IMG/VR virus record: IMGVR_UViG_3300030332_000525
Coordinates: 1-27,811 of that record
DNA from: a virus
Lineage: Duplodnaviria; Caudoviricetes
Direction: 5' to 3' (one strand)
DNA: 27,811 nt
Position numbers and translations under genes: made by a program. Below the pieces are notes generated by a model. That model did not search any database. It had not been told where the DNA came from and worked only from the letters and a program-made list of their open reading frames with translations. Shown here one piece after another: positions 4,227 through 27,193 of the stretch (positions within the stretch are counted from its first letter, which is position 1; each line of letters starts with the position of its first letter).

Positions 4227-4256
4227 TTAATTATTTAATTATATTTTATTATGGCA
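4227..4256 (+). promoter_or_regulatory. Repeated start-proximal motif TTAAyTATTTAATTATATTwTATTATGGCA, copy 1 (scaffold gene)
   Basis: 28/30 identical to 6996-7025, with the same spacing to the ATG. Confidence 0.6.
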
Positions 4257-6997: not shown

Positions 6998-7025
6998 AAC
7001 TATTTAATTATATTATATTATGGCA
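6996..7025 (+). promoter_or_regulatory. Repeated start-proximal motif, copy 2 (gene after capsid)
   Basis: ttaactatttaattatattatattATGgca; 28/30 identical to 4227-4256. Confidence 0.6.
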
Positions 7026-9920: not shown

Positions 9921-12900
9921 ATGCCAGAAATAAAGAATACTTTTCTAAAATCTAAGATGAATAAAGACTTAGATGATAGATTGATACCCAATGGCGAATA
10001 CAGAGATGCTGAAAATCTACAAATTAGTAGATCAGAGGGGTCTAGTGTTGGTGAATTTGAGAATATTCCTGGGAATCAATTAGTAACTAATGGCTATTTA
10101 GATACAGGAAGTATTAAAAATACTACAACAGGGGCAACAATTTCTTATGCAGGAACAGTTATTGGCCAACATACAGATGAAGCTAGTGGTAATATATTTA
10201 TTTTTAGCACTAGTTATACTGGAACAGATCAACAGCCTAGAGATATAACTGTATATACTTCTAATCCTGCTGTACCAAGTGGGGATGCTATAACTTTATG
10301 GGATGGGCCAGGCCCAGGGGCTACGCAATTAAATCCTTTGATATTAGGTATTGAAAATGGAATGTTAATACACGGACCAGCTGTGGATGGGGCTACTACA
10401 CCAGGAGATATTTATGTTACAGCCGTTACTAATACTGATATACGATTAAGTTGGAATCCTGGTGGTATTGGAAACTGGCCAATTGGTACTGCTCTTGTTA
10501 TTGGATGGTGTAATACTATTCATAGATGGAACGTAGATGGTACCTTAGATTTATTAGTTAGAGGCAGTTTTCTTAATTTTAGCACTCAATCAAAAATATA
10601 CGGAACTAATTTAATAGAAGGATTATTATTTTGGACAGATAATAGAAACCAACCTAGAAGAATAAATGTAGATTCAGCTATAGCTAATGGTGTTACATAT
10701 TATACTTTAGAAGATCAAATATCTGTAGCTAAATATTATCCTTATGAAGTACCTTTAGTTTTAGATGAAAATATATTAGGAATAACAGCAGGAGCGTTAC
10801 CGGGAGGATTATTAAGAGGTTATATTTTAACAATGGCTGATACTACAGGTATTAAAATTGGAGATATTGTAACAGGATTTCCCGGACAAGGTGCACAAGA
10901 ATTATGGGAAGTTATAACAATTGTAACTAACACTTCAGTTACTATTTATAATAATTTTATTAATGCAGCCCCAGGAACTTATAATGGAACTGATAATATA
11001 AATATTACATTTTCGCGTTCCACAATGACTAATGAAAGTGAAATAAGACAAGAAAATGGATTTAATACTACTTATACAGGTGCGCCAGGGGCTGTTGCTG
11101 CAGGTGCTGCATTTCAAGTAGATTATTCTTATAATAATATAGCTGCTGACCCTACTCCTCAACCCACCCCTAAAGTAGGAGATTATATTACTAGTACTGC
11201 AATAGGGATTACTATAGCCGATGAAATAATTATACAATCTATAACCTCTATAGCTACCCCGGGTAATATGGTAATAACTTTAACAAAAGCTACTCCCGTT
11301 GCTGCTGTAGGTGATGATGTTATTATTTCAGCTAATCCAAATTATGATAATACATTTACAGGGGATCCAGATTTAATAGAAGAAAAATTTGTAAGATTTA
11401 GTTATAGATTTAAATTTGTAGATAATGAATATTCTTTATCTGCCCCTTTTAGTCAAATATGTTTTATTCCTAAACAAGAAGGTGTTTTTGGTGGTGGACC
11501 AAATGAAAGTGGACAAGATATGATTGATACTTATACTTCTACTATTATAGGTTGGTTTGAAAATAGAGTTAACAATATTCGTTTAAAAATTCCATTACCT
11601 CAAGGGGGAATTGATCCCATAACCGCCTTAGCCTCATTAGAAGACGATTATCAAGTAGAAGCTATAGAAATTTTATATAGAGAATCAGATGGATTATCTA
11701 CTAAAATATTAGAATCATTAAGTGTTGCAGAAGATATAAAAACTGTTGATATCTCCCCTATACCTAATACAAGTACTACCCAATTTTATTATACATTTGA
11801 TTATAAATCTGTAAAACCTTATAAAACATTACCTACAAATCAAGAAACTAGAGTATATGATAAAGTCCCTATTAAAGCTTTAGCCCAAGAAGTAATTGCT
11901 AATCGAGTAACTTATGGAAATTTTGTAGAAAATCATACTCCACCATCATCTTTAGACTATAGTGCTTCATATAATAATAAGTCTTTAATCTATAATAATT
12001 ATGTTCAATATCCTAATCATTCTGTAAAACAAAATAGGAATTATCAAGTTGGATTTATTTTAGGAGATAGATATGGAAGACAGTCTAGTATTATTTTATC
12101 TTCTAATGATAACAACCCTGCAGCTAATGGATCTACGGTTTATGTACCTTATAAAGATTGGACTGATGTACAAACTAGTGCTTTAAGTACTTATGAATGG
12201 CTTGGGAGTTGTTTAAGAGTAATTGTAAATAATGGAATAACCCAAACAACTAAAAACACTCAAACAGGTGAACCAGGATTATACAAAGCTTACGTGGATA
12301 CTGAAGTAGATAATTTTACTATTAGCAATGGAGGCGCTGGTTATGGAGTGGGAGATTCATGTACTACGGCTTACCCGGCTGGTAGTGTGGGATTAGGCAG
12401 TGGGTTTACTTTTGATGTACTTACAGTGGCGGCTGGAGTTATAACTGGTATTACAATAACTAATCGTGGAAGTGGATATGCAAATGGACAGCTTTTAAAT
12501 GTGGTTGGGGGATTAGGAGCTGGTGCAACTATTACAGTGACAGTAAACCCTGTAAATGTATTAGGATGGCAATCATATAAATTTGCAATAAAACAACAAG
12601 AACAAGAATATTATAATGTATATTTACCTGGATTTGTTTCAGGTTATCCTGTAATCCAACCTATTGAAAGAGGAAGACTTGCGGGGGCAATTTTATTAAG
12701 CGATAATATTAATAAAGTACCAAGAGAGTTAAATGAAGTTGGCCCTTTACAAAATGAATTTTCTGCTTCGGTAGAATTATATGGAAGAGTAAATAATCCT
12801 AATATAAATAATAGAAATGCCCCAGCGGGTAGTTATCACAGTAACCGTACTTTACCCTGGAATACTCAATATTTTCCTGGTAGAATTGCAGATGAAGCAT

Positions 12901-14768
12901 ATATAACTGGTCCTGTTGGAAAAGATGGTTTAGAATTAGCTAATTCTCCTTTTGATGCTACTGCAATACTTGGCGCTTTTGATAACGCAAGTACACCCCC
13001 TCAACTTCCATGGGGAACTGCTGGTGCAGAACAAAGTTTTTATAATGTAGAACAAAATCCTTTAGCAACAGGAATAAAAGTTGGTGCAGAAGAATCACAA
13101 CCACAGCTAGATACAGTAGTTTTAACTACTTTAGGTGCTAAAGTTACAACTAATCCTATCCCGGTTGTAGGGGCTAATACAGGATGTATGGTACCTTTTT
13201 TAAGTGTATCTGAAACCGCCCCGGTTGAAAGTGAAATAGAAATCTTTTGGGAATCTTCTACTAGTGGTGATTTTGTAGAATTAAATAAAGCAGTCCTTGC
13301 AGACTATGTTGGGGTAAGTGGGGTTTCTGCTACAAGCGGTTCTTTTAACGAAGATGATACAGTTAGTCCAGTTACTCAAATTTTAACTAATTTTAAATTC
13401 CAAGATAGCGCAGGAAATAATTTAACATTAGATGGTGTTCCAGTTGTTATACAAGTTTTAGATAATAATGGTAATGACGTTACAAGTTCTAATCTTTTTA
13501 TATTACAACAATATGCGCCAGGCGTCGCTAATAGAGATTGGGAAATAATTCTTAATGATTTATTTTGGTATGGTGCCCCAAGTTTAACTAAAGCAACTAG
13601 CTGGAGTATCAGTGTACAAACTAGTGATGGCGCAGGAACTTATCTAGACACATTAACTAACGCTATAACTCTTAGTTTAAATAATATTATTCCTACTAAT
13701 TTACAATTTGTAAGTACATTGGATGCAACTGTATGGGTTACAACAAATACTGTAATTCCAAGTTTTCTTCCTTCTGTTACTAATTTAGGAACATTTAGTG
13801 GTAAAAACGGTTCAGCAGATATAGTTAATGATACTCAAGAATTATGTTGGACATTAACTTTAATAGCCGACCCCGTGGGTTCTACTGCAGTTTTTGCAAT
13901 AGATGGAACAACTGGTGTAGTAACTAAAACCTCAGGAACATTAGTTAATGGAACTTATACTATACGTGGCACTTTAACAGATGCAGCTCCGGCATGTGTA
14001 GCTTCTGCTGAAAGTTTATCAGCGGATTGTGATATTAATTTTACTATAGGAACTCCCGATACTGATCAAGCTATTTGTTTTGGAGAAACAAGCGCTATGG
14101 CTGCATTAGATACTTCTTGTGCTGCCGGTACAGGTTTGCCTTTAGAAGTATTTTTTGGAGTAAGTGGAAATGTAACTAATGGAACTGCAATTGCAGTAAT
14201 AGGAAGTGAAACTGATGCATATCTTTCTACATTACCTGCCCCAGCTGGGAGTGGTAGCACAAGCTATACTACAACTTCAGCGGGAGGGGCAAATTTAAGA
14301 TATTATAATGTTAAGACTGCGGCAATAGCGGGGTGGACAGCTCCACTTTATTGTTTCCCTGGTCCTGCACCTGCTTTTACCACAGGAGCCTTAAGTCAAG
14401 GAATAATGACTGTTATTGTTAAATTAGAAAAAGCTATTACAGCAACTTCTGCAGATTTCCAAACAAATTTTACAATATTATATAGAGCTAATTCTGGAGT
14501 TGCATGGCAATTAGCTACAGATTCAAGTTCGGTAGTGGTTGGTAATTTTAATGCATTAAATGTAACTGGTACTGCGGTAGATACAGATTCATTAACTTAT
14601 CAATTTGATACTCCAGGTGAATATGCAGTTAGAACTAACGGGGTTCAAAATATTGGGAGTCCTGGATGTGGGTTATATCCAACAGCCCCTTCTGTTACAG
14701 TAGAGTTTTACGATAGTACTACAGGGGTAACAGCTAATCCTTGTGTAGATTGTACCGGACCACTGTAA
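9921..14768 (+). CDS. Tail stabilisation/nozzle (muzzle)-like protein, N-terminal part, with inserted beta-domains and a cadherin/Ig-like, Cys-rich C-terminus
   Basis: The N-terminus NTFLKSKMNKDLDDRLIPNGEYRDAEN is typical of P22 gp10/T7 gp12-like stabilisation proteins. Core-like blocks (LLFWTDNRNQPRRIN, FSYRFKFVDNEYSLSAPF, PIKALAQEVIANRVTYGNF) alternate with T/G/A/P-rich inserts. Confidence 0.72.
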   Translation: MPEIKNTFLKSKMNKDLDDRLIPNGEYRDAENLQISRSEGSSVGEFENIPGNQLVTNGYLDTGSIKNTTTGATISYAGTVIGQHTDEASGNIFIFSTSYTGTDQQPRDITVYTSNPAVPSGDAITLWDGPGPGATQLNPLILGIENGMLIHGPAVDGATTPGDIYVTAVTNTDIRLSWNPGGIGNWPIGTALVIGWCNTIHRWNVDGTLDLLVRGSFLNFSTQSKIYGTNLIEGLLFWTDNRNQPRRINVDSAIANGVTYYTLEDQISVAKYYPYEVPLVLDENILGITAGALPGGLLRGYILTMADTTGIKIGDIVTGFPGQGAQELWEVITIVTNTSVTIYNNFINAAPGTYNGTDNINITFSRSTMTNESEIRQENGFNTTYTGAPGAVAAGAAFQVDYSYNNIAADPTPQPTPKVGDYITSTAIGITIADEIIIQSITSIATPGNMVITLTKATPVAAVGDDVIISANPNYDNTFTGDPDLIEEKFVRFSYRFKFVDNEYSLSAPFSQICFIPKQEGVFGGGPNESGQDMIDTYTSTIIGWFENRVNNIRLKIPLPQGGIDPITALASLEDDYQVEAIEILYRESDGLSTKILESLSVAEDIKTVDISPIPNTSTTQFYYTFDYKSVKPYKTLPTNQETRVYDKVPIKALAQEVIANRVTYGNFVENHTPPSSLDYSASYNNKSLIYNNYVQYPNHSVKQNRNYQVGFILGDRYGRQSSIILSSNDNNPAANGSTVYVPYKDWTDVQTSALSTYEWLGSCLRVIVNNGITQTTKNTQTGEPGLYKAYVDTEVDNFTISNGGAGYGVGDSCTTAYPAGSVGLGSGFTFDVLTVAAGVITGITITNRGSGYANGQLLNVVGGLGAGATITVTVNPVNVLGWQSYKFAIKQQEQEYYNVYLPGFVSGYPVIQPIERGRLAGAILLSDNINKVPRELNEVGPLQNEFSASVELYGRVNNPNINNRNAPAGSYHSNRTLPWNTQYFPGRIADEAYITGPVGKDGLELANSPFDATAILGAFDNASTPPQLPWGTAGAEQSFYNVEQNPLATGIKVGAEESQPQLDTVVLTTLGAKVTTNPIPVVGANTGCMVPFLSVSETAPVESEIEIFWESSTSGDFVELNKAVLADYVGVSGVSATSGSFNEDDTVSPVTQILTNFKFQDSAGNNLTLDGVPVVIQVLDNNGNDVTSSNLFILQQYAPGVANRDWEIILNDLFWYGAPSLTKATSWSISVQTSDGAGTYLDTLTNAITLSLNNIIPTNLQFVSTLDATVWVTTNTVIPSFLPSVTNLGTFSGKNGSADIVNDTQELCWTLTLIADPVGSTAVFAIDGTTGVVTKTSGTLVNGTYTIRGTLTDAAPACVASAESLSADCDINFTIGTPDTDQAICFGETSAMAALDTSCAAGTGLPLEVFFGVSGNVTNGTAIAVIGSETDAYLSTLPAPAGSGSTSYTTTSAGGANLRYYNVKTAAIAGWTAPLYCFPGPAPAFTTGALSQGIMTVIVKLEKAITATSADFQTNFTILYRANSGVAWQLATDSSSVVVGNFNALNVTGTAVDTDSLTYQFDTPGEYAVRTNGVQNIGSPGCGLYPTAPSVTVEFYDSTTGVTANPCVDCTGPL

Positions 14769-14797: not shown

Positions 14798-16174
14798 ATG
14801 GCAACCACTCTAGAATTATCATATTTTAACACTTTTTGGTTAAAGAGACTTAAGAATTATACTCAGTATAAAGAATTCGATGCAACTGGTGGCGGTGGTA
14901 TTACCGCGGGAGTTGTACCATATATAGCAACTAATGTATATGAAGATTGGTTTGTAGAAGAGGCTAGAATAAGAGGTGGTTATAATAATACTTCAGTTAA
15001 TTTTGGGGCGAAAGCATATTTAGTAGAAGATGAACCTCAACAACAAACTTTTAAAAATAGATTAATATATTCTGGAATAATAAATTCTCGAACAGGTGTT
15101 AATAATACTAATCAATTTCCAATAGGTGAAGATATAACTAGAGGTGTAGACCCAAGATCTGGTAGTATACAAAAATTATATGCTGAAAATACCAACCTAC
15201 TAGTATTCCAAGAAAAGAAAGTTAATAGAGCATTAATAGATAAAGATGCTATTTATACAGCTGAGGGACAACCTGTAACAGCTAGCACTAATTTAGTTAT
15301 TGGACAAATAACACCTTTTGAAGGAAATTTTGGAATATCTAGAGATCCAGGATCTTTTGCTGTACATGGTTATAATAAATATTTTACTGATAGAGATAAT
15401 TCTGCAGTATTAAAACTAGGGGCTAGTGGTATAGAACAAATATCTAACTTTGGAATGATTGATTATTTCAGAGATACATTAGCACAAGATGGTGATATAA
15501 TAGGAGGTTACGATATATATAATAAAAATTATGTTATTACTTTAGGTAATCCTCAAGTAACAATAGCTTATGATGAATTAATTAATGGTTTTACTAGTTT
15601 CTTTGATTATATTCCACAATTAAGTACAAGTTGTTTAGGAAGATATATAACTTTCCAAAATAATGGAATATGGCAACATTATATAAATACTTTATATAAT
15701 AATTTTTATGAAATTCAATATGGATCAAGTGTAACATTTGTATTTAATCCAGACCCTGTTAGAATGAAAACTTTTAAAACTATCAGTTATGAAGGTAGTA
15801 ATGGATGGGAAGTACCGGCTAGTAGTTTTGTTTCTGATATAACCGGTATAGATTCAAATCCACAAGAACCAGCATTGGGAGATACAAGTTATACAGATAG
15901 TGTAGGTAGAATATATAGTTATGATGAAGGATTTTATACAGATCCAGTTACTCAAATAGAATATAGGGCAGGATTTGATAGAAAACAAAATACATATTAT
16001 GCAGCATTAAAAAATAACTCTCCAGCAAGAGCTATGGAGGTTATATTTGATGCCGCGCAAGAAACAGGTATAAAAGCATTTTATGCAACAGTAAAATTAC
16101 AAACAGATGCAACTACAGACCCAACAGGGCCTAAAGAATTATTTGCAGTAGGTAGTAATTACAATAGAAGATAA
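14798..16174 (+). CDS. Tail stabilisation/nozzle-like protein, C-terminal beta-propeller part
   Basis: 458 aa. Propeller-like blocks (GSIQKLY, LLVFQEKKV, FGISRDPGSFA, KYFTDRDNSAVLKL, GGYDIYNKNYVIT, FTSFFDYIP) and KTFKTISYEG resemble the C-terminal half of gp10-like proteins. Confidence 0.68.
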   Translation: MATTLELSYFNTFWLKRLKNYTQYKEFDATGGGGITAGVVPYIATNVYEDWFVEEARIRGGYNNTSVNFGAKAYLVEDEPQQQTFKNRLIYSGIINSRTGVNNTNQFPIGEDITRGVDPRSGSIQKLYAENTNLLVFQEKKVNRALIDKDAIYTAEGQPVTASTNLVIGQITPFEGNFGISRDPGSFAVHGYNKYFTDRDNSAVLKLGASGIEQISNFGMIDYFRDTLAQDGDIIGGYDIYNKNYVITLGNPQVTIAYDELINGFTSFFDYIPQLSTSCLGRYITFQNNGIWQHYINTLYNNFYEIQYGSSVTFVFNPDPVRMKTFKTISYEGSNGWEVPASSFVSDITGIDSNPQEPALGDTSYTDSVGRIYSYDEGFYTDPVTQIEYRAGFDRKQNTYYAALKNNSPARAMEVIFDAAQETGIKAFYATVKLQTDATTDPTGPKELFAVGSNYNRR

Positions 16175-16589: not shown

Positions 16590-17324
16590 ATGGGAGCAGC
16601 AACAATAATTGCGGCAGTTGCATTAACTACGGCTGTAGTCTCTGGAGCAGTAGCGGCCGGTAAAGCACATAAAGCTAAGAGAAGAGCAAGAAACGCTAAA
16701 CAAGAAGCTAAGTTCCAAATGGAAGCAGCAGTACGTGATAGACAAGATATTATAAATCCTTATGCGGGAATAACTGATTTATCTGGATTAGCTAGTGATT
16801 TGTCTAGCCAAATAACTAATCCATTTAATAATTTACAAGTATCAACAGCTGCAGCTGAAATGCAAGCTGAAGAAGCTGATATTGCTTTGGCTAATACTTT
16901 AGATACTTTAGAAATGACTGGGGCAAGTGCTGGAGGAGCAACTGCTTTAGCAATGGCCGCATTAAAATCTAAAAAAGATGTTGCTACAAGTATTGAAGAA
17001 CAAGAAGCTAAAAATGCAGAGTTAAAAGCAAGAGGAGAACAACATGCTATTGATGCCAGAGTAACTGCAACAGAAAGATACCAAGACGTTACTATAGAAG
17101 AAGGGGCAAGAGCAGAGGATGCTGCGACCCAAGGAGAAATATTTCAATTTCAAGCACAAGAGGCCAGAACTAATAATGATATTGCTAGATATCAAAGTAT
17201 GTATCAAGGATTTGCTGCACAACAAAATAATGCAGAAATAGCACAAGCTCAAGCATGGACTCAAGTAGCAGCATCGGCTGGAAGTATTGGCTCAGCAGCT
17301 GGAGGACAAATTACTCCAGATTAG
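16590..17324 (+). CDS. Putative small ejection/internal virion protein (T7 gp14/P22 gp7-like position)
   Basis: Ala/Gly-rich hydrophobic N-terminus followed by a basic patch (KAHKAKRRAR), an Ala/Gln helical body and a Gly/Ala-rich C-terminus. Follows the GNAT gene. Confidence 0.65.
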   Translation: MGAATIIAAVALTTAVVSGAVAAGKAHKAKRRARNAKQEAKFQMEAAVRDRQDIINPYAGITDLSGLASDLSSQITNPFNNLQVSTAAAEMQAEEADIALANTLDTLEMTGASAGGATALAMAALKSKKDVATSIEEQEAKNAELKARGEQHAIDARVTATERYQDVTIEEGARAEDAATQGEIFQFQAQEARTNNDIARYQSMYQGFAAQQNNAEIAQAQAWTQVAASAGSIGSAAGGQITPD

Positions 17325-17347: not shown

Positions 17348-18904
17348 ATGAAACAAAAAAGTTTAATAGAAGCGCACAATAATACTATAAAAAGATTATC
17401 AGATATTTCGCAAACACGACGAGCCTCAGATTTAGATTTTCTTACTAGATCGAGTATTAATTATAGAGATGCTCAATTTTCTCCTTCTTCAGCAAATGAA
17501 AATGAAGATGAAAAATTAACTATAAAAGTAAAAGACGCTTTTATAGAGGAAGCAGAAAGAGTAGGTGGGGTTATAGATGCACAAACTCGATTAAATAGTC
17601 AACTCCCTAATTTAAGTAATCCTGAAATTAAAACTTTAAATAGATATACAAATGATTATTTTAAACGTTTAAAACAAATAGGAGAAGTTGGTGGTTATTT
17701 AAGTGTAGCTACAGAAGAATTACAACCTGATAATTTACCTAATTTTATGGCAGATTGGCCTAATTATAATATAAATGGTTATAATGAACGTGATAGAGAT
17801 AATAATTTATTTCAAGCTTCAGGATGGGCAAATGATTTTGATTATTATGATGATGTAAAAGTTAAAAAAGATTTCTATTTTCAGCCTACTGCTGGAGGAG
17901 AAAAGACTGTTTTAACTCAAGATATTTATATAGATCCATTAGGAAAAACTTTTAAAGATTTTTTACATAATAAACCTTATATTATAGATGATTTTTTAGC
18001 AAATAAAAATTTAGAACAAGATGAAACTGGAAAACATTGGTATAAGATATCGGGAGAAGTAGATTCTGATTCAGTAGTTAATTTAAATATATTAGATCAT
18101 TTTATAAGTGATGTTCCTGCAGGAATGAAATTAGGCGATGCTTTTGAAAATGCGGAATTAACTAAAAATGGTACATTACAACCTCAATATTTTTTAGGAG
18201 GTTCACCTATATCTAGCGATAATGAAACTCCTGAAGAAGATACTGCGGTAAAAATGCCTATGTATACAGTTAAGGAAAATAAAATGGGTAGGAATTTAAT
18301 AAAATTTATTAATACTGAAGCTATCAATGCTAATCCAGCATATAATAGTGAAGTAAATGCTCATATGGCAGGAGTATTTGCCAATGGGGGAGGAAACCCA
18401 GGAGTATTATATGGCTATGCTAATAATAGATTAGGTATAGATTTACCTATAGGATTTTTTGACTATATTACACCTGAAGAAAAAGCATTATATGAAAGTT
18501 TATCTCCAGAAGAAAAAACAGGGTATATGGGATTAAGAGAGAAATTTAATACTTTAAATAAAACTAATAAACGAAATATAGGATTAGTTAATGCTCAAAA
18601 AGCATGGTTTTTACAACGTACATTTGAAAATAATTTAGATAGAAAACTACCTCAACAAGTAGGAGATAATGAACCTTCTATAGTTAAAGATATACTAACT
18701 GATAAAACAGAACAAGGTAAAGATATGATAGAATTTCTTAATAAAAATAATATGCCTATCCCTGAATTTTATAGAATTATGTTAGGTATACAAGAATGGC
18801 AAGCTGGGATGCCGGTGTTTTATCAAAAATTACCCGAAGAACTTAAAAATTTACCAAAGAAACCATCACCAAAACAAAAAGAGTTTATTAAAAAATATTC
18901 TTAA
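17348..18904 (+). CDS. Hypothetical protein, probable second ejection/internal virion protein
   Basis: 518-aa ORF between the small and giant ejection-like genes; no motif recognised. Confidence 0.5.
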   Translation: MKQKSLIEAHNNTIKRLSDISQTRRASDLDFLTRSSINYRDAQFSPSSANENEDEKLTIKVKDAFIEEAERVGGVIDAQTRLNSQLPNLSNPEIKTLNRYTNDYFKRLKQIGEVGGYLSVATEELQPDNLPNFMADWPNYNINGYNERDRDNNLFQASGWANDFDYYDDVKVKKDFYFQPTAGGEKTVLTQDIYIDPLGKTFKDFLHNKPYIIDDFLANKNLEQDETGKHWYKISGEVDSDSVVNLNILDHFISDVPAGMKLGDAFENAELTKNGTLQPQYFLGGSPISSDNETPEEDTAVKMPMYTVKENKMGRNLIKFINTEAINANPAYNSEVNAHMAGVFANGGGNPGVLYGYANNRLGIDLPIGFFDYITPEEKALYESLSPEEKTGYMGLREKFNTLNKTNKRNIGLVNAQKAWFLQRTFENNLDRKLPQQVGDNEPSIVKDILTDKTEQGKDMIEFLNKNNMPIPEFYRIMLGIQEWQAGMPVFYQKLPEELKNLPKKPSPKQKEFIKKYS

Positions 18905-18913
18905 TTAAATTAT

Positions 18914-21900
18914 ATGGTTGACGAAAACAATATCTGGGATGAATTACCTGGGACTGATGTAATAACACAAGAAGAAGATGAAGAAAATCAGAAACAAGAA
19001 GAAATAGAGACTGCGGAAGTAGAAGAAGTCCCTATTATTGAAGACGTAGAAACAGATGCAGATGTTTTACTTAATGAAGAATGGAATAATTTAGATGGAG
19101 AGGAAACAAAAATAATAGAAGATAGTAGTCCTATAGATATCCCAATAACGGGTTCTAATATAAATATAAATGGTGTATCGGTTGCAGTAGATCTAGAACA
19201 AGAAAAGAAAGGAAAAGAAGAATGGAATACTCAAAATGAAGAAATAGCAACACAAATAAATGAAATAAAGGATAATCCTGTTTATACTCCCGATGGAACA
19301 GTAGATATAAAAGCCACACAAGAAGCTATTGATAATGTCCCACAAAATCAAGGATTAATTCTAAAACAAGAAGTTGAAGAAGATGAAGAATCTGTATTAG
19401 ACTTAAGAAATAAAGTGAAGTCTTCTAAATTGCGGCTTGAAGAAGAAGTTATTGATGATGATACTTCTTTTAATTGTCAAGAAGCCCTTGTAAAGTTTTA
19501 TGCCGGAGAGTTAGAAGCTAAAGATATATCTGATTGTGTAGACGTAAAGCCTGAAATTAAAGACGCTGTAATGGATAATTTTATTCCTAAAGATACTGAA
19601 GGGAAAAATTTATATAAAACATTAGAGGAGTATCTTTTAACTTTAACCATAGATAATCCTGAGACGGGAGAAATTGATGAAAGTATTAATCCCGAAACAG
19701 GGATGACATATATAGATGAAGCAATTTTCAAAGCAATAAAGACAAGTTATTATAATGATGCTGTAGTAAAACAAACTATTAAAAATGAAGAAAATGATTT
19801 ACTTACATCTCCAAATACAATTTCTAAAGCAAATGAATTACAATCTTTATATTTTTCTTTTCCTGATGTAGAAGAAAAAATAAATAAATTAACTACAGGC
19901 TTAGAGAGTATAAATGCTCAACTTGTTATAGACGAAGATAATATTGCTCGATTAGCAGACAAAGATGCCCAAAAAGCCTGGGAAAAAACAGTCAAAGAAA
20001 GACAAGAGTTATGTAAAACAGTAGGTATATTTTGTGAAGCAGAGTGGTATAAACCTCCTACTTATGATCTAATTAATCAATACAATAGAAAAATAAAAGA
20101 AATTCAAAATATAGCAAAAAGTAGAAATGTCAAAATTACACAACTTAATGCATTATTAGAAGGTAAAGAGGGAGATTATCCTGAAGATTTACAAAATAGG
20201 GTTGAACAATATCAAACAGCTTTTACTAATTATATTAATGAAGAATATTCAAAACGATTAAGTAGTAATAAAACTCTTACTACTAAATATAAAGAATATG
20301 GAATTGTAGCAGATAAACTGCTCCCAGATATCATTAAACAACATGGTAGACTTCATCGTCCTGAATTAAGGGGAATTGATATAAGAAGTGATTATTGGGA
20401 GAATCAAAAAGAAATGAGTGCATTAGAAGTAGCTAAGCAAATGTTTACTAATATAAAACATAATTTCATACTCTCTACCCAAGGAAAGGATAAAGAAAAA
20501 ATAAATATTTTATCAGAAATTCCACAATTTGAAAAAGGTAAGTTAAATATTGAAGAAAATAAAATTTTATTTAGAGAAACAACTAATAAATTCCTAGCGG
20601 AAACCAATATCGCTCTTAGAGATTTTTTTGGTGATCGAGCTCGCTTTTCTAAAGATCGTGATAATATAAATAATTTAATAGAAACAACTCCGGTAACTTT
20701 AGACATGACAATTGGTGAAGCCGCTAAACATAGTAGTATCATTAAAGGAATGTTCAGATATTATAACCAAGGAATGTCCTCTTTTGGTCAAGAATTTAAT
20801 GAAAATATGACCGTTAAAGAATTTAGAGATAGTTTTAATATAGGAATTGAAGATATTAAAGCTTTAGAATTAGATGATTATGAAAATTGGGTTAATGCTT
20901 ATGAAGAAATGTCTTTTTTAAAGGATCTAAAAATAGATGAAGATTTTTTAAGCATAGAAGGTTTCATGCAACATTTAGGAATGGCTTATAACCAAGCATT
21001 GCATATGGTCCCATCATATGCTGGTCAAGCAATGATGATGGCAGGTACTGGAATGAGTTTTATTCCACTACCTCAAACACAAGTTGCAAGTAAAGGCTTA
21101 ATGATTGGTGGTGGAGCGCTTATGGCTGCAGGTGCGAGTATACAAGGGGCTATGACATATAGTAATGTATTTATGGAAGGTGTTAGAATACAACTTACTG
21201 AAGAATTAGGCCAACAACCTACTGCACAACAATTTTTTGAAGCCTTACAAGATCCTAAATATGGGGATCAATTAGCTGCTGCTGGGGCTGGGCTTTCAGT
21301 AATGGGTAGTGAATTTTTCTCTGATCTTATATTTTCTCGAGTTGGTGGTAAAGCAGGTACTTGGATGTTTACAAATTCTACTACAAGGAAAATGATGCAA
21401 AATTCTCTCCAGAAATATATAATAAATTTTGGAACTAGCGCTGGTGTATATGGATTAAATATGTATAAAGAATGGGGAGTAGAAGGTTTTCAAGAATGGT
21501 TAGAACAAGGGTTTACACATATGGCTATAGGACAAGATAATCCTTTTACCTCTAATATAGATTGGGATCAAATATCAGAAGCCGCTGAGGGTGGATGGGA
21601 TTTAAGTAAATTATTTGGAATAAGCACGGCAGGTGGCGCATTATTAGGGCAAAGTGGTATAAGTGATATAATGATAGGTAGTTATAATAGTAGAGCAAAA
21701 GCCATAGTGTCAAAATTACGCTTAGATCCAGGCAGCAAAACTGCTTCCACAGTTGAAAAATTATTGCAAAACTTAAAAAATGATATTAATAATGATGGAA
21801 GTTTAAATAAAAAACAAAAAAATGATCAAATTTTATCTTTATCAAATATAAGGTCTGCAGCATTATCTGTTTCTCCTGAATTTAGATCGCAAACTAGATT

Positions 21901-24900
21901 AAAACTTATTAATTTAATTATTGAACAAAAAAATCTAGAAAAAAATATAAAACGTGTTAATAATAAACAAGCAAGTGTATTAGAAATTGAAAGAAAAAAT
22001 GAGGTTGATGCACAAATACAAGAAATTATATTAGCTGAACATGCATATCAGCAAGCGCTGCAAGGAACTACTCAAGCTATGGGTATATTTGGTGTGGGTG
22101 CAGAAGATCCAATAATTAAAGGATCTGAAGGAAAGCAGCCTTTAGAAGATTTGGATGCTTTAGTTACTAAATGGCAACAAGGAGCTGGAGATGTCGATGT
22201 CCAAAATGACATCCTGCCGCAATTTGAAGCAGCTGTAATAAGTTCATTAAAAAGATGGGGAGTAACTAATGGAAGAAACATAACTTTTGATTTAAAAAAC
22301 CCTGAAGTAATAAAAGAAATAAAGCAAGAGGTTGGCCAAGAGCTCTGGAGTTTTATAGAAAACTTTGATAAAACTAAAAGTGCTGCTACAACATATACAG
22401 CTAATATAGCAAAAAGAATAGGGCCTCGATTAGTTGATATTTTAGCTAGACCAAAAAGTCAAAAGGAAATGACCGCGCAGGAAATGGAAAATATTGCTGC
22501 ACAAGAAACTGAAGAAGTTACAGGAGAAGAATTCCAAGAAACTGGATTACCATCGTCTGTAGCAGTAGTAGAAAAACAATTAGCCGATAGTAGGCCAAAT
22601 ATTTTAGCTAAAACTAAAGAAGATATAAAATCATTTATTGCTAGTAGTTTAGGTAAAGTAAAAGAAATTGGTAAGAAAGGTAAAACGGCAATAATAAAAC
22701 TTACCCCCACTGCTCTTGCACAATCTTTAGTAGAGGCTGCTGGATCTACTAAAACTAGACAAATATTAGCAAAAGATATAGGTGGATATAATACTAATAA
22801 ATATAAAAAGTTTGTAAAAGAGGCTATAGAGGGAGGACTTATAAGTACTATTCCTTTTGCCACTATGAAGAAAAGATTGGGTACTGTTCCAGGGTTTAAT
22901 ATAGAAAAAATAGGTAGAGAAACTTTAGGAGCTGGCACGGGTATTTATAAACTTTCAGGTTTACAGGAGCAAGCTTTAATAGATTTTTATACTAGCGATA
23001 AAGTAAAACCAGAAACACGTCAAGGGAGATATAAGTCTTTTGTAGGAATGTTAGCAGAAAGTATGGCTATTGAGCAGTTCCAAGAAATGAAAACTGATAA
23101 AGATTTCATGAAAGATTTATCTATTTCATTAGAAGAAGCCGGAATTGAAATGACAGCTGAGGAATTTATTGACCAAGTAGAAAAGAAATTAGATAAAAGA
23201 ACTAAAGAAAAAAGATCTTTAGATATTATAGAAAGCAAATTAGATAAAGGAATAACTCAATTAGATAAATATATAAAAGATAACCAGGGGATTTTATATA
23301 GTGGAGTGCCTATAGCCGCGGCGGCGGCCCAAGCAGTACGTGGGGGTTTTAAAATATTAAAGAGTACTTATCAAAAAACTAAATCTATAGCTAAAGCAAT
23401 CAAAGCTGCTATTAATTATTTACAAAAGAAATTTAAAAATTTATCTCGAACTAAAATAAAACAAATTTGGGAAACAGAAGTAAATGAACAATCTTTAAAA
23501 GATAATACAATAGATATAGATGCTTTAATTGATGCCTATATAGACCAAGGAATAAAGAATAAAGGTATTGCATATGAAAACGTTGTATATGATGCAGCTA
23601 ATAAAGTAAAAAATACTATATTTAAAGTTATTGGAAAACAAACAGAAAAAGGTGGGGCTGCTGATTTCATGTCCAAATTATCAGGATTTGATTTTAATGT
23701 AGAAATTAAAATGGAAACATCTCGATTTGGCAGTGTTCTTATGAAAATATTACCAAATGGTAATATAAAATTTGCGACAGATTATGATTTTAACCCTGAA
23801 TTAGAAAAAGCACTAAAAAAGAATAAGAAAAATATACAGGCCTTTAGAAACAGGGCCGAACAGCTAGGTCAAAATATGGAAGATTTTGATAATGGCATTA
23901 TTGATAAAAAAATATGGGAACAATTAAAAAAAGAAGGGTATTTAAAAAATGCTAGAACAATAGTTACATTAGATGCAAAAGAGGTTGTAGGTGGTTATTA
24001 TTTAGCTCAAAAATATCCTTCTGAATATATGAATATAAAAGGAAAAGGACTTGTAGCTCTTGGGAATGATCCATTAGGATTAGGAGTCCCTACTTTGGAC
24101 GGAACAGTAGATATTGAAGTTGGAATAAATACTTCAGGAACTATATATAAAAAAGTAAAAGGGAAAAAACCTCTAGATACCGGAAATAGATCATTTAGTC
24201 TTAGGGCAAAACCATTTAGATTAAGCAATGTTAGTAAATCTAATTATAATATAGACACAACTGCGGGAATAAATAAACTTTTAAACAGTAAACAAGTACA
24301 ATTATTAAAAGATAAGCAAAAAGCAGCAGCTAAAGGGCCTGGTAATAATATTTCTCAACCTTCTAATTCACCAAATCAAAGAAAAGAAACTTTAGAAAAT
24401 TCTTTAGATACTAAAGTAAATGCGCAAAAAGTAAATAAAAAGAAAAAAGGCATTAGTGTATTTGATATGGATGATACTTTAGCGAAAACTAAAGAACAGG
24501 TTTTAGTTTCAATGCCTGATGGTACATTAAGAAGATTAACCCCAGCACAATTTGCGGAACAAGCAGACATATTAACTGAGCAGGGAGCGGAGTTTGATTT
24601 TTCTCAGTTTGAAGATGTTAAAGGAGCCAAAAAAGGACCATTGGCAGATCTTGCTTTACGTAGACAAGCTAAGTTTGGGAGTGGTGATATTTATGTTCTT
24701 ACGGCTAGACCACAAGCATCAGCACAAAATATAAAATTATTTTTAGACAGTATAGGTTTAAATATACCAATAGAAAATATAATAGGATTAGAAAATGGTA
24801 CTCCTCAGGCAAAAGCCCAATGGGTATTATCTAAAACTCAAGAAGGCTATAATGACTTTTATTTTGCTGATGATTCAAAAATGAATGTAAAAGCAGTTAA

Positions 24901-27193
24901 ACAAATTTTAGATCAAGTAGATGTTAAATCTAAAGTGCAACAAGCTATAGCTGATAAAGCTACAAATCTTGATAAAGAGTTTAACGAGATGTTAGAAGAA
25001 ACTGAAGGGGTGAAATCTCAGGCAGAATATTCTAGAATTAGGGCCCAATTAGAAGGAAAGAAAAAAGATAAAGGATTTTTTAAATGGTTAGGTAAACAAT
25101 TAACTATTACACCTTCAGCTGAAGATTTCTTAGGATTAATGTATGACCTAATAGGCAGCGGCAGGCAAGGCAATAGACATGCCAAATGGATTAGAGATAA
25201 CTTAATTAACCCTTTTAATAAAGCTGAACAACAAATTTTATCTGCTAAAACTAGTGTAGCTAATGATTTTGCTGCACTTAAAAACGCCTTTCCATCTTTA
25301 AAATCAACTATTAAGGGAAACCCTTTAATGGATCAAATTGGTGTTGGTCCATATACTAAATCTCACGCGATGAGGGTATATATGTGGAACAAACAAGGTA
25401 TGGAAATTCCTGGTCTTTCTAAACGTGATCAAAATGCTTTAGTTAAAGCTGTAGAAAATGATATGGAGCTTATGTCATTTGCAGATAATGTTATTTTAAT
25501 ACAAAAAGATAAGCAATACCCAGCCCCAACTAATAATTGGGCCGGAGGAACAATTGATAGCGACATAATGTCTAGTATAGATAAAACTTTTAGACGCCAA
25601 GTTATGACCGAATTTGATGAAAATACTAAAATTATATTCTCAGAGAAGAACTTGTTTAAGTTAGAAGCCACTTTTGGTAAGAAATGGGTTGAAGCTTTAA
25701 AAGATAGTTTACGTAGAATGAAGTCCGGTAGTAATAGACCAGTATATCAAGGCGGTGGTTCTAGAATTGTAAATGAATTATTAGATTGGTTAAATGGTTC
25801 TGTTGGAGCTATTATGTTCGTAAATATGCGGTCTGGTTTGCTTCAAATCATATCTAATATAAATTTTATAAACTGGGGTGATAATAATATCTATGCGGCC
25901 GCGAAAGCTTTTGCTAGTGCAGAATATTGGCCTACAGTATTAAAATTAATGAATTCTGATTATTTAGTTAATAGACGTGATGGATTAAAAATAAATGTTA
26001 ATGAAGCTGAATTAGCGAATGCCGCTAAAGATGGTGGAATGAAAGGGGCTATTAATTATTTATTAGATAAAGGATTTATTATAACTAGAATAATGGATAG
26101 CTTAGCTATTGCAACCGGTGGTGCAACTTTTTATATAAACAGAAGAGATGCATTATTAAAAAGACAAAATCCAGAAACAGGTAAAAAATATACTAAAGCA
26201 GAAGCAGAGACACAAGCATTTGATGATTTTTATGCTATTGCAGAAGAAACGCAACAGTCTAGTAATCCTAGTAAAATATCACAACAACAGGCTAGTTTAG
26301 CTGGTAGAGTCATATTGTCATTCCAAAATGTGACAATGCAATATAACAGGAAAGTTAAAAAAGCTATTAGGAATTTATATAATAGAAGAAAAAATCCTGG
26401 TATGACACAAAGAGAAAGTGATATGAGTAATATTTCTCAAATTGTATACTATACTACAGTGCAAAATATCATATTCCATAGTTTACAACAAACATTGTTT
26501 GCACTATTATTTGATGATGAAACAGAAGATGAAGAGAAAAATAGATTAGCTAATATTGCAAATGGTATGGCTGATTCATTATTATTTGGACTTGGATTTG
26601 GAGGTGCTGCAATCTCTACAATTAAAAATGTGCTATTACAAATAAGATACGAGAGTCAACAGAAAAGTCCTGAATATGAAGAAGCTGTATGGGCATTATT
26701 TGACTTCTCCCCAGTATTAGACTCTAAAGTTCGTAAATGGCGCACTGGTCTTAAAACATTTAGTTGGAATAGAGAAGAAATTGCTAATCGGGGGTGGAGC
26801 TTAGATAACCCAGCTTATTTAGCTGTAGCACAAATAGTTTCGGCCACTCTTAACCTTCCTATAGACAGAGTATTACGTAAGACTATGAATTTAAGGGCAG
26901 CAATGGATGAAGAAACTAGAACTTGGCAAAGAATTGCTTTAATATTAGGATGGGATACATGGAGCTTGGGTCTTCCCTATTGGGGATTACAAAGCACTAT
27001 TGCAAAAGAAGAAAAAGAAAAAGCAAAAATAAAAGCAGATTACAAAAGTGATATTAGGAAAATAAAAGCAATGGGTTATAAAAAAGTTATGAGTCGAGTT
27101 TTAAAAGATTATGATCCTAAAGATATTATAGAATTACAATCTCCTGCAGGAACTGTAGTTTATTATGCTAAAATTAAAAAGAAAAAGAAATGA
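18914..27193 (+). CDS. Giant (2759 aa) multidomain protein, probable large ejection/internal virion protein, with sigma70 region-2-like, PD-(D/E)XK-like and HAD domains
   Basis: Acidic N-terminus; G/A-rich hydrophobic helices (~21000-21680); sigma-like segment (~22140-22450); nuclease motif (E1555, D1584, E1597-x-K1599); HAD motifs I-IV (D1851, T1930, K1967, D1986/D1987); hydrophobic helical C-terminal region. Occupies the T7 gp16 position. Confidence 0.8.
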   Translation: MVDENNIWDELPGTDVITQEEDEENQKQEEIETAEVEEVPIIEDVETDADVLLNEEWNNLDGEETKIIEDSSPIDIPITGSNININGVSVAVDLEQEKKGKEEWNTQNEEIATQINEIKDNPVYTPDGTVDIKATQEAIDNVPQNQGLILKQEVEEDEESVLDLRNKVKSSKLRLEEEVIDDDTSFNCQEALVKFYAGELEAKDISDCVDVKPEIKDAVMDNFIPKDTEGKNLYKTLEEYLLTLTIDNPETGEIDESINPETGMTYIDEAIFKAIKTSYYNDAVVKQTIKNEENDLLTSPNTISKANELQSLYFSFPDVEEKINKLTTGLESINAQLVIDEDNIARLADKDAQKAWEKTVKERQELCKTVGIFCEAEWYKPPTYDLINQYNRKIKEIQNIAKSRNVKITQLNALLEGKEGDYPEDLQNRVEQYQTAFTNYINEEYSKRLSSNKTLTTKYKEYGIVADKLLPDIIKQHGRLHRPELRGIDIRSDYWENQKEMSALEVAKQMFTNIKHNFILSTQGKDKEKINILSEIPQFEKGKLNIEENKILFRETTNKFLAETNIALRDFFGDRARFSKDRDNINNLIETTPVTLDMTIGEAAKHSSIIKGMFRYYNQGMSSFGQEFNENMTVKEFRDSFNIGIEDIKALELDDYENWVNAYEEMSFLKDLKIDEDFLSIEGFMQHLGMAYNQALHMVPSYAGQAMMMAGTGMSFIPLPQTQVASKGLMIGGGALMAAGASIQGAMTYSNVFMEGVRIQLTEELGQQPTAQQFFEALQDPKYGDQLAAAGAGLSVMGSEFFSDLIFSRVGGKAGTWMFTNSTTRKMMQNSLQKYIINFGTSAGVYGLNMYKEWGVEGFQEWLEQGFTHMAIGQDNPFTSNIDWDQISEAAEGGWDLSKLFGISTAGGALLGQSGISDIMIGSYNSRAKAIVSKLRLDPGSKTASTVEKLLQNLKNDINNDGSLNKKQKNDQILSLSNIRSAALSVSPEFRSQTRLKLINLIIEQKNLEKNIKRVNNKQASVLEIERKNEVDAQIQEIILAEHAYQQALQGTTQAMGIFGVGAEDPIIKGSEGKQPLEDLDALVTKWQQGAGDVDVQNDILPQFEAAVISSLKRWGVTNGRNITFDLKNPEVIKEIKQEVGQELWSFIENFDKTKSAATTYTANIAKRIGPRLVDILARPKSQKEMTAQEMENIAAQETEEVTGEEFQETGLPSSVAVVEKQLADSRPNILAKTKEDIKSFIASSLGKVKEIGKKGKTAIIKLTPTALAQSLVEAAGSTKTRQILAKDIGGYNTNKYKKFVKEAIEGGLISTIPFATMKKRLGTVPGFNIEKIGRETLGAGTGIYKLSGLQEQALIDFYTSDKVKPETRQGRYKSFVGMLAESMAIEQFQEMKTDKDFMKDLSISLEEAGIEMTAEEFIDQVEKKLDKRTKEKRSLDIIESKLDKGITQLDKYIKDNQGILYSGVPIAAAAAQAVRGGFKILKSTYQKTKSIAKAIKAAINYLQKKFKNLSRTKIKQIWETEVNEQSLKDNTIDIDALIDAYIDQGIKNKGIAYENVVYDAANKVKNTIFKVIGKQTEKGGAADFMSKLSGFDFNVEIKMETSRFGSVLMKILPNGNIKFATDYDFNPELEKALKKNKKNIQAFRNRAEQLGQNMEDFDNGIIDKKIWEQLKKEGYLKNARTIVTLDAKEVVGGYYLAQKYPSEYMNIKGKGLVALGNDPLGLGVPTLDGTVDIEVGINTSGTIYKKVKGKKPLDTGNRSFSLRAKPFRLSNVSKSNYNIDTTAGINKLLNSKQVQLLKDKQKAAAKGPGNNISQPSNSPNQRKETLENSLDTKVNAQKVNKKKKGISVFDMDDTLAKTKEQVLVSMPDGTLRRLTPAQFAEQADILTEQGAEFDFSQFEDVKGAKKGPLADLALRRQAKFGSGDIYVLTARPQASAQNIKLFLDSIGLNIPIENIIGLENGTPQAKAQWVLSKTQEGYNDFYFADDSKMNVKAVKQILDQVDVKSKVQQAIADKATNLDKEFNEMLEETEGVKSQAEYSRIRAQLEGKKKDKGFFKWLGKQLTITPSAEDFLGLMYDLIGSGRQGNRHAKWIRDNLINPFNKAEQQILSAKTSVANDFAALKNAFPSLKSTIKGNPLMDQIGVGPYTKSHAMRVYMWNKQGMEIPGLSKRDQNALVKAVENDMELMSFADNVILIQKDKQYPAPTNNWAGGTIDSDIMSSIDKTFRRQVMTEFDENTKIIFSEKNLFKLEATFGKKWVEALKDSLRRMKSGSNRPVYQGGGSRIVNELLDWLNGSVGAIMFVNMRSGLLQIISNINFINWGDNNIYAAAKAFASAEYWPTVLKLMNSDYLVNRRDGLKINVNEAELANAAKDGGMKGAINYLLDKGFIITRIMDSLAIATGGATFYINRRDALLKRQNPETGKKYTKAEAETQAFDDFYAIAEETQQSSNPSKISQQQASLAGRVILSFQNVTMQYNRKVKKAIRNLYNRRKNPGMTQRESDMSNISQIVYYTTVQNIIFHSLQQTLFALLFDDETEDEEKNRLANIANGMADSLLFGLGFGGAAISTIKNVLLQIRYESQQKSPEYEEAVWALFDFSPVLDSKVRKWRTGLKTFSWNREEIANRGWSLDNPAYLAVAQIVSATLNLPIDRVLRKTMNLRAAMDEETRTWQRIALILGWDTWSLGLPYWGLQSTIAKEEKEKAKIKADYKSDIRKIKAMGYKKVMSRVLKDYDPKDIIELQSPAGTVVYYAKIKKKKK

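Follow-up and report, generated by a model that had tools for sequence, protein, structure and literature searches.

A sigma-70 domain 2-like module in a giant putative cargo protein of Flavobacteria-type podophages, and a candidate early promoter in their relatives

Introduction

On the current view, phage transcription starts either through the host holoenzyme or through a polymerase carried in the virion, and T4 Alt, which is injected, redirects the host polymerase by covalent modification. The locus analyzed here raises the question of whether a virion could also deliver a sigma-like specificity module, and, if so, which promoters such a module would serve. A preliminary description of this DNA had proposed that a giant putative ejection protein contains a sigma region 2. 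We therefore examined the giant gene, its relatives in other phage records, and the early regions of those relatives.

Results

The giant gene at the end of the virion gene block

The window (the whole stretch of DNA that was analyzed, 27.8 kb of an aquatic phage record that is 43% complete) carries a virion gene block on one strand. The gene order is terminase, portal, capsid, muzzle-like genes (PF25731, PF25729) and a GNAT-like gene, followed by three genes of 244, 518, and 2759 aa:

16590..17324, + strand: small putative cargo protein, 244 aa, first of the triplet (synteny)
17348..18904, + strand: middle putative cargo protein, 518 aa (synteny)
18914..27193, + strand: giant protein, 2759 aa, last of the putative cargo/ejection triplet, which carries the sigma-2 module (ORF, synteny)

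The terminase, portal, and capsid match those of Flavobacteria phages (elemo, Panino, phi38:1, phi19:3) and of one uncultured record, and these relatives have the identical gene order with three genes at the end of the block. Structural homologs were found in Pervagoviridae, Pachyviridae, and Elemovirus (phi38:1, phi19:3, elemoB, Panino) and in uncultured ctfjg026, with the terminase at 46-66% for the nearest of them and the portal and capsid at 41-50%. A small-medium-giant triplet after the tail/muzzle genes is as expected of podophage ejection/cargo proteins, and the syntenic genes are annotated as structural in phi38:1 (gp99-101) and elemoB. The giant protein itself gave no match in 50,697 phage records (tblastn), and no protein of a cultured phage matches it in sequence, so its putative virion location rests on synteny. 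A single contig of a bacterial genome (a Flavobacteriaceae MAG) carries a relative, and together with the phage relatives this contig points to a Flavobacteria-type host.

The crassvirus muzzle-like protein is split over two window genes (9921-14768 and 14798-16174, + strand), so that its N-terminal Pfam match falls on one ORF and its C-terminal match on another. The phages ctfjg026 and phi19:3 likewise have a large gene with smaller ones after it.

Sequence and fold of the sigma-2 module

The peptide that the preliminary description had read by eye as a sigma region 2 is present: 22142-22450 (+) translates to residues 1077-1179 of the 2759-aa ORF at 18914-27193. The module was delimited as follows:

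22127..22504, + strand: sigma-70 domain-2-like module, aa 1072-1197 (profile-profile comparison, fold, conserved columns)

With the single sequence, Pfam Sigma70_r2 (PF04542) matched at E 0.031 and 14.5 bits, below the curated cut-off of 24 bits, and three of the five NCBIfam rows at E<0.05 were sigma models, while searches of PDB sequences with the domain returned no significant sigma (best sigma E 0.96). No relative reached the Pfam cut-off either; weak matches were seen in 2/18, 1/43, and 2/36 members, and the best relative had 16.8 bits. The signal rises above chance only with the family alignment. An 18-relative profile found 104 representatives among 1.84 billion proteins; four repeat proteins and one outlier were left out, and with the earlier matches 114 segments were aligned, whose consensus contains aromatic-D-P and F-S-T-Y. 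When these 114 members were compared with 17 Flavobacteriaceae MAG sigmas by hhalign, the match was co-linear over 89 columns, from region 1.2 to region 2.4, with P 5.8e-5 and a score of 32.2. The 201 decoys scored lower (11.8 for the reversed alignment, at most 16.5 in 100 column shuffles, and at most 22.9 in 100 seven-column block shuffles). This pair was chosen by hypothesis, and P multiplied by 24,736 Pfam families is about 1.4, which alone is not significant; with 162 members P was 9.5e-5.

The AlphaFold model of the domain had a pLDDT of 79. When it was compared with 48,161 chains, the first 8 of the 50 matches listed were sigma entries, and judged by titles about 25 of the 50 were sigmas, two of them uncertain. 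The best match was 7d7d_F (Z 7.5, rmsd 4.7, 100 aligned), and the best non-sigma among the matches listed had Z 5.5; according to the structure-comparison tool, Z below 8 (below 13 for helical bundles) can reflect a common arrangement, so Z 7.5 is modest for a helical fold. Foldseek gave nothing at E<=0.001, but all 8 listed matches with TM of at least 0.39 were sigmas (TM 0.39-0.48) and the others stayed at or below 0.24; with a 377-aa model nothing significant was found in PDB or BFVD. In the ESM Atlas the only named set shown was a sigma cluster with PF04542 on 100% of its members, at a score of 0.95 and with a low 112/256 features in common. Foldseek and the ESM Atlas thus agree with the other comparisons, neither being significant by itself.

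The earlier assignment to sigma region 2 thus held up, as the family profile-profile comparison and the predicted fold both name sigmas, and the fold predicted for the region is the sigma-2 helical bundle, with modest scores. Since these modest lines agree and the functional columns of sigma are conserved, we consider it very probable, from sequence profiles and models, that the domain is homologous to sigma-70 domain 2.

Anatomy of the module

In the window the helices lie at about aa 1080-1088, 1096-1118, 1130-1150, and 1158-1178, and in relatives an S-L/I-D acidic linker follows the module. Column conservation was computed over 61 members with less than 60% identity. The best-kept columns were those of region 2.3, F1151 and T1159-T1160-Y1161 (aromatic 100% at F1151; S/T 97%, T 90%; Y/F/W/H 95% at Y1161), positions that in sigma-70 structures form the walls of the pocket in which the flipped -11 base sits. 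The core-binding helix (region 2.2) of the window protein has E1135, E1139, and E1143 and keeps E..QE. Among the 61 members the first acidic column is D/E in 78% and the other two in 20% and 46%, and at least two acidic residues are found in 98/114 members, so acidic residues are loosely kept on this helix; otherwise region 2.2 is variable, with Ser (52%) and Phe (41%) where host sigmas have Gln and Glu/Asp. Region 2.4 is altered: where the -12 reader of sigmas aligns, members have Pro (48%) or Arg/Lys, and the Trp pair is missing.

As had been noted before, region 4 was not recognized: the giant has no Pfam region 4 match, and none came from profile comparison. The former label "ECF" proved too narrow, because the best fold match is a chain of the T4 late-transcription complex and the F-S/T-T-Y of region 2.3 fits a host RpoD-type sigma as much as an ECF sigma. 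The module is not a free subunit but is embedded in a single 2759-aa frame.

The rest of the giant protein

Four further regions follow the module:

22541..23248, + strand: domain after sigma-2, aa ~1210-1445, Lys/Arg-rich core, conserved in near relatives
23261..24343, + strand: variable region, aa 1450-1810, exchanged between relatives
24419..24988, + strand: HAD phosphatase-like domain, aa 1836-2025, DxD at ~aa 1851 (PHROG 415 E 3.7e-5; TIGR01681 E 0.0014)
25031..27193, + strand: C-terminal domain, aa 2040-2759, a conserved marker of the family without a match to a named one

The domain after sigma-2 (~240 residues) gave no known family, no clear fold match, and no Atlas match, and when its shallow alignment was compared with sigmas by hhalign, P was 0.26. 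The fold matches listed for it include no region 4 structure, although one could still be present, and it is a candidate reader of an upstream promoter element. A CscA match in this domain (PDB search, E 0.008) was gappy and was disregarded. The variable region of the window is common to only 5 of the 114 relatives examined; searches with it gave no match, and a PD-(D/E)XK-nuclease-like D...ExK motif (aa ~1584-1599) was seen by eye only, without library support. The C-terminal domain was present in every family protein at least 1,800 aa long (69/69).

The giant contains no D.DGD and no polymerase family match, in agreement with the preliminary description, which had seen no RNA polymerase catalytic motif. 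Across 156 giants D.DGD occurred in 20 scattered matches, mostly in C-terminal tails, none of them conserved. The top 19-residue hydropathy was 1.32-1.36 and there was no strong transmembrane segment, which lends little weight to the membrane tether that had been proposed.

In 2/17 scanned giants a P-loop kinase (AAA_33) lies beside or inside the HAD domain (P0077 aa 2523-2657, P0108 aa 974-1109), and from sequence the AAA_33 and HAD domains are possibly a polynucleotide kinase/phosphatase-like pair for nucleic-acid end repair. Distant family giants (L158, L167, L172, L178, L179, L181, L182, L185, L187, L193, L197, L067) carry an EF-hand-like D-R-D-G-D-G about 36 residues before the C-terminus.

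Distribution across the clade

Giants were sampled by the C-terminal domain; the best 80 of 107 viral loci were taken, and after 7 truncated ones were left out, 73 full-length giants remained. The sigma-2 domain was detected in 70/73 of them, as 43 matched the iterated profile and 27 more matched a second, position-seeded profile, with 3 matching neither. The second profile (27 loci) compared with the first at P 7.2e-5, with 3/48 cross-matches, all within the segment, and it showed no link to bacterial sigmas (P 0.11). A search for loci with the sigma-2 domain alone as query found none. The large genes of five annotated relatives did not match the domain (one giant was read in part), and the giants of the Flavobacteria phage relatives have no detectable sequence in common with the window giant. 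By these comparisons the domain is a mark of a large uncultured clade of Flavobacteria-type podophages.

A promoter-like motif before early genes

The window (43% complete) has no early region, so the motif described here is known only from relatives. Repeat search of the early regions of genomes G032 and G033 gave AATAC-N11-GATAAT:

G032:C1:12918-19467, - strand: early region with the motif; matching early regions in G033, G052, G060, G063, G065, G066, G069, and G074

In these nine genomes the motif precedes short early genes. There are 55 distinct sites, on one strand per stretch, where shuffling gave a mean of at most 0.06 per strand, and the sites extend to the consensus (C/G)AAA-N3-AATACRA-N9-GATAATA, in which columns outside the search core are also fixed. 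The upstream element comes in two variants, CGAA..WT and ACAAA.TA. The AAA...GATAA layout of the motif resembles sigma-28-type promoters. Among 50 records searched, all 7 virus records that are at least 90% complete carry the motif, with 6-10 copies on one strand in six of them and 2 copies at a contig end in one. The controls gave 0-2 per strand for the reversed pattern and 0-2 scattered copies in five annotated relatives, and the motif was in 0/204 upstream regions of the five relatives whose large genes lack a domain match.

The first ATG lies 4-8 nt behind the motif in 32/55 sites (6 nt in 13), a spacing that would fit the geometry from a -10 element to +1 with leaderless or short-leader messages. 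The upstream half read backwards is similar to the host -7 box and SM5 (available text of PMC9723704), but this reading was rejected, since the distance to the ATG shows that the motif runs forward. None of the six motifs given for Flavobacterium psychrophilum in the same part of that source is this motif, and the host consensus given there, TAnnTTTG, was present in 2/121 clade upstream regions vs 9/29 in elemoB, which is without the domain.

A different motif lies in the late module of the window:

4232..4253, + strand: late-module motif TATTTAATTATATT(A/T)TATT-ATG, directly before a 413-aa gene
7001..7022, + strand: second copy of the late-module motif, before a 281-aa gene (0 copies in 200 window shuffles)

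These conserved 22 nt are AT-rich, end in the start codon, and occur at the same places in G032 and G033; they are a candidate late promoter or translation start signal. The copy at 7001 follows a terminator-like hairpin. In one relative (L213, MW202828.1 41000-60850) another repeated, partly palindromic element stands before 9-10/29 genes, and it is possibly an operator or a promoter class of its own.

A separate sigma gene and no detected polymerase in relatives

The relative G032 has 68,850 bases and is 100% complete. No RNA polymerase was found in the 35 ORFs scanned against libraries (ORFs of at least 100 aa, apart from structural homologs and the last ~3 kb), and D[FYLIMHN]DGD was absent from all six frames. 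Its replication module encodes a separate sigma:

L200:10902-11654 (genome G032), - strand: separate sigma, 250 aa, with regions 2 and 4 (PHROG 351 E 4.9e-18)

Among six clade genomes the separate sigma has 56-70% identity. For the embedded domain the figure is only 11-41%, in genomes that hardly differ in the motif. In 6/6 genomes the separate sigma gene lies inside an operon, 1.3-2.9 kb downstream of the last motif copy and on the same strand, and in 6/6 the 230 nt ahead of this gene are free of the host consensus. Its transcription must therefore be started by something else. In the five annotated relatives no homolog of it was found, and the Flavobacteria phage relatives likewise showed no clustered motif. 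The embedded domain is not detectably closer to the separate sigma (P 0.12 and 0.14), which gives no support to a recent duplication. The motif, the giant, and the separate sigma co-occur (one search behind this was without a positive control), and therefore their distribution cannot assign the reader of the motif.

Discussion

The preliminary description had suggested that the module may recruit or sequester the host polymerase. Reliance on the host polymerase gains from the complete relative without a detected polymerase, and recruitment to early promoters gains from the motif in relatives; polymerase binding, virion location, and membrane tethering are putative.

The reading that we prefer, with a probability of roughly 0.55, is that the virion brings in a gp55-like sigma module, with which the host polymerase begins early transcription. 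The giant would be a virion cargo protein, presumably packaged and ejected into a Flavobacteria-type host, where its sigma-2 domain would dock on the clamp helices of the RNA polymerase beta-prime subunit and open the phage early promoters before any phage protein exists. The sigma-2 domain would read the GATAAT hexamer as a -10 element, and the neighbouring domain may stand in for region 4 as reader of the upstream AATAC/AAA element. Expression of the early operon would then supply the separate, full-length phage sigma, which may take over or drive the late genes. The presence of two modules of sigma type and two classes of motif, with no polymerase detected, fits such a cascade. Its clade-wide form, in which infection starts with a virion-packaged sigma made of sigma-2 and a new upstream-element reader, followed by a second phage sigma, we would give about an even chance.

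Against the preferred reading, conservation (56-70% vs 11-41%) and the possession of region 4 favour the separate sigma as the reader of the motif, as far as sequence can tell; region 2.4 is altered, Z and the E-values are modest, and the second profile shows no link to bacterial sigmas. The main alternative, which we regard as unlikely, is that the embedded domain binds the host core but picks no promoters, as a tether that keeps the polymerase where the genome enters so that DNA is pulled in, or as a decoy that displaces the host sigma, while recognition of the motif falls to the separate sigma once transcription has read through from a weak host promoter. The far better conservation of the separate sigma and its region 4 would suit a near-invariant, multi-part motif, the altered region 2.4 also agrees with this, and so does the AAA...GATAA layout, which resembles sigma-28-type promoters. 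Against it, the strongest conservation is in the region 2.3 melting pocket and not in the core-binding helix; the host consensus is not enriched in the early regions to bootstrap the separate sigma; and a second, different motif in the late module is available for it.

Less probable still is that the domain kept only the binding of single-stranded or fork DNA and grips or opens the incoming genome end without a polymerase. The invariance of region 2.3 beside a variable region 2.2 (Ser 52%, Phe 41%) and the place of the domain in a putative ejection protein agree with such a role, but acidic residues persist on the core-binding helix, with E..QE kept in the window protein, and the non-host promoter-like motif would be left unexplained. 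The least probable alternative, by a little, is a convergent or vestigial likeness, that is, a four-helix structural spacer without a transcription role: helical bundles reach Z 7-8 by common arrangement and no sequence match was significant database-wide, but sigmas come up in profile, fold, and language-model searches alike, conservation is highest in the functional columns of sigma, and the domain is retained across the clade at 11-21% identity.

Among known systems, the nearest by fold is T4 gp55 (7D7D chain F; Z 7.5, rmsd 4.7, 100 aligned), which is within 1 Z of SigB and SigI6; the chain was taken as gp55 from the paper's description and the chain length. According to the available text of PMC7892883, gp55 is a sigma reduced to the domain-2 fold that reads a -10-like element and binds the clamp helices via three acidic residues of its core-binding helix. 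However, gp55 is small, acts late, is synthesized in the course of infection, and has gp33 and gp45 as helpers, whereas the embedded domain lies inside a 2759-aa putative virion protein and would act first. With sigma-70 domain 2 in general (PF04542; SigB 8x6g, SigI6 8i24, SigC 2o7g, SigE 2mao) the phage domain shares the co-linear profile over regions 1.2-2.4 and the aromatic-D-P and F-S/T-T-Y motifs, but it is below the Pfam cut-off, is not free, has no detected region 4, and has an altered region 2.4.

The muzzle-like genes (PF25731, PF25729) with large genes of cargo type behind them resemble the crassvirus arrangement (crAss001 gp45-gp50), in which the cargo is ejected ahead of the DNA (available part of PMC10172136, whose main text there has 0 occurrences of "sigma"). 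Unlike the crassvirus and N4 virion polymerases, the giant has no polymerase motif or family, and it would deliver a specificity module and not an enzyme. Phage polyvalent proteins (Iyer et al. 2017, PMC5512222), as described in the available part of that paper, are giant injected multi-domain proteins with exchangeable enzyme domains. The HAD domain, the variable region, and the P-loop kinase in 2/17 scanned relatives are parallel to this, but no LPD Pfam match and no named polyvalent domain was found in the giant; "sigma" has 0 occurrences in the main text seen of that paper, whose supplements may list domains. In the literature searched, which covered few subscription papers and included the available part of PMC7824862, we found no virion protein described as having a sigma domain, and neither "packaged sigma factor" nor "virion-associated sigma" occurred in the papers listed. 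The domain is real, family-wide, and apparently undescribed.

If the preferred reading is true, the host polymerase is reprogrammed to AATAC-N11-GATAAT promoters without protein synthesis, and a third route of early transcription exists beside the host holoenzyme and the virion polymerase, which perhaps also pulls the genome in. A packaged sigma domain would be the cheaper route, independent of the host sigma and of the unusual promoter code of Bacteroidota. The putative function of this domain of 126 residues is now tied to a candidate promoter, and, if true, a sigma-2-only factor and a compact non-host promoter would become available for Flavobacteria genetics.
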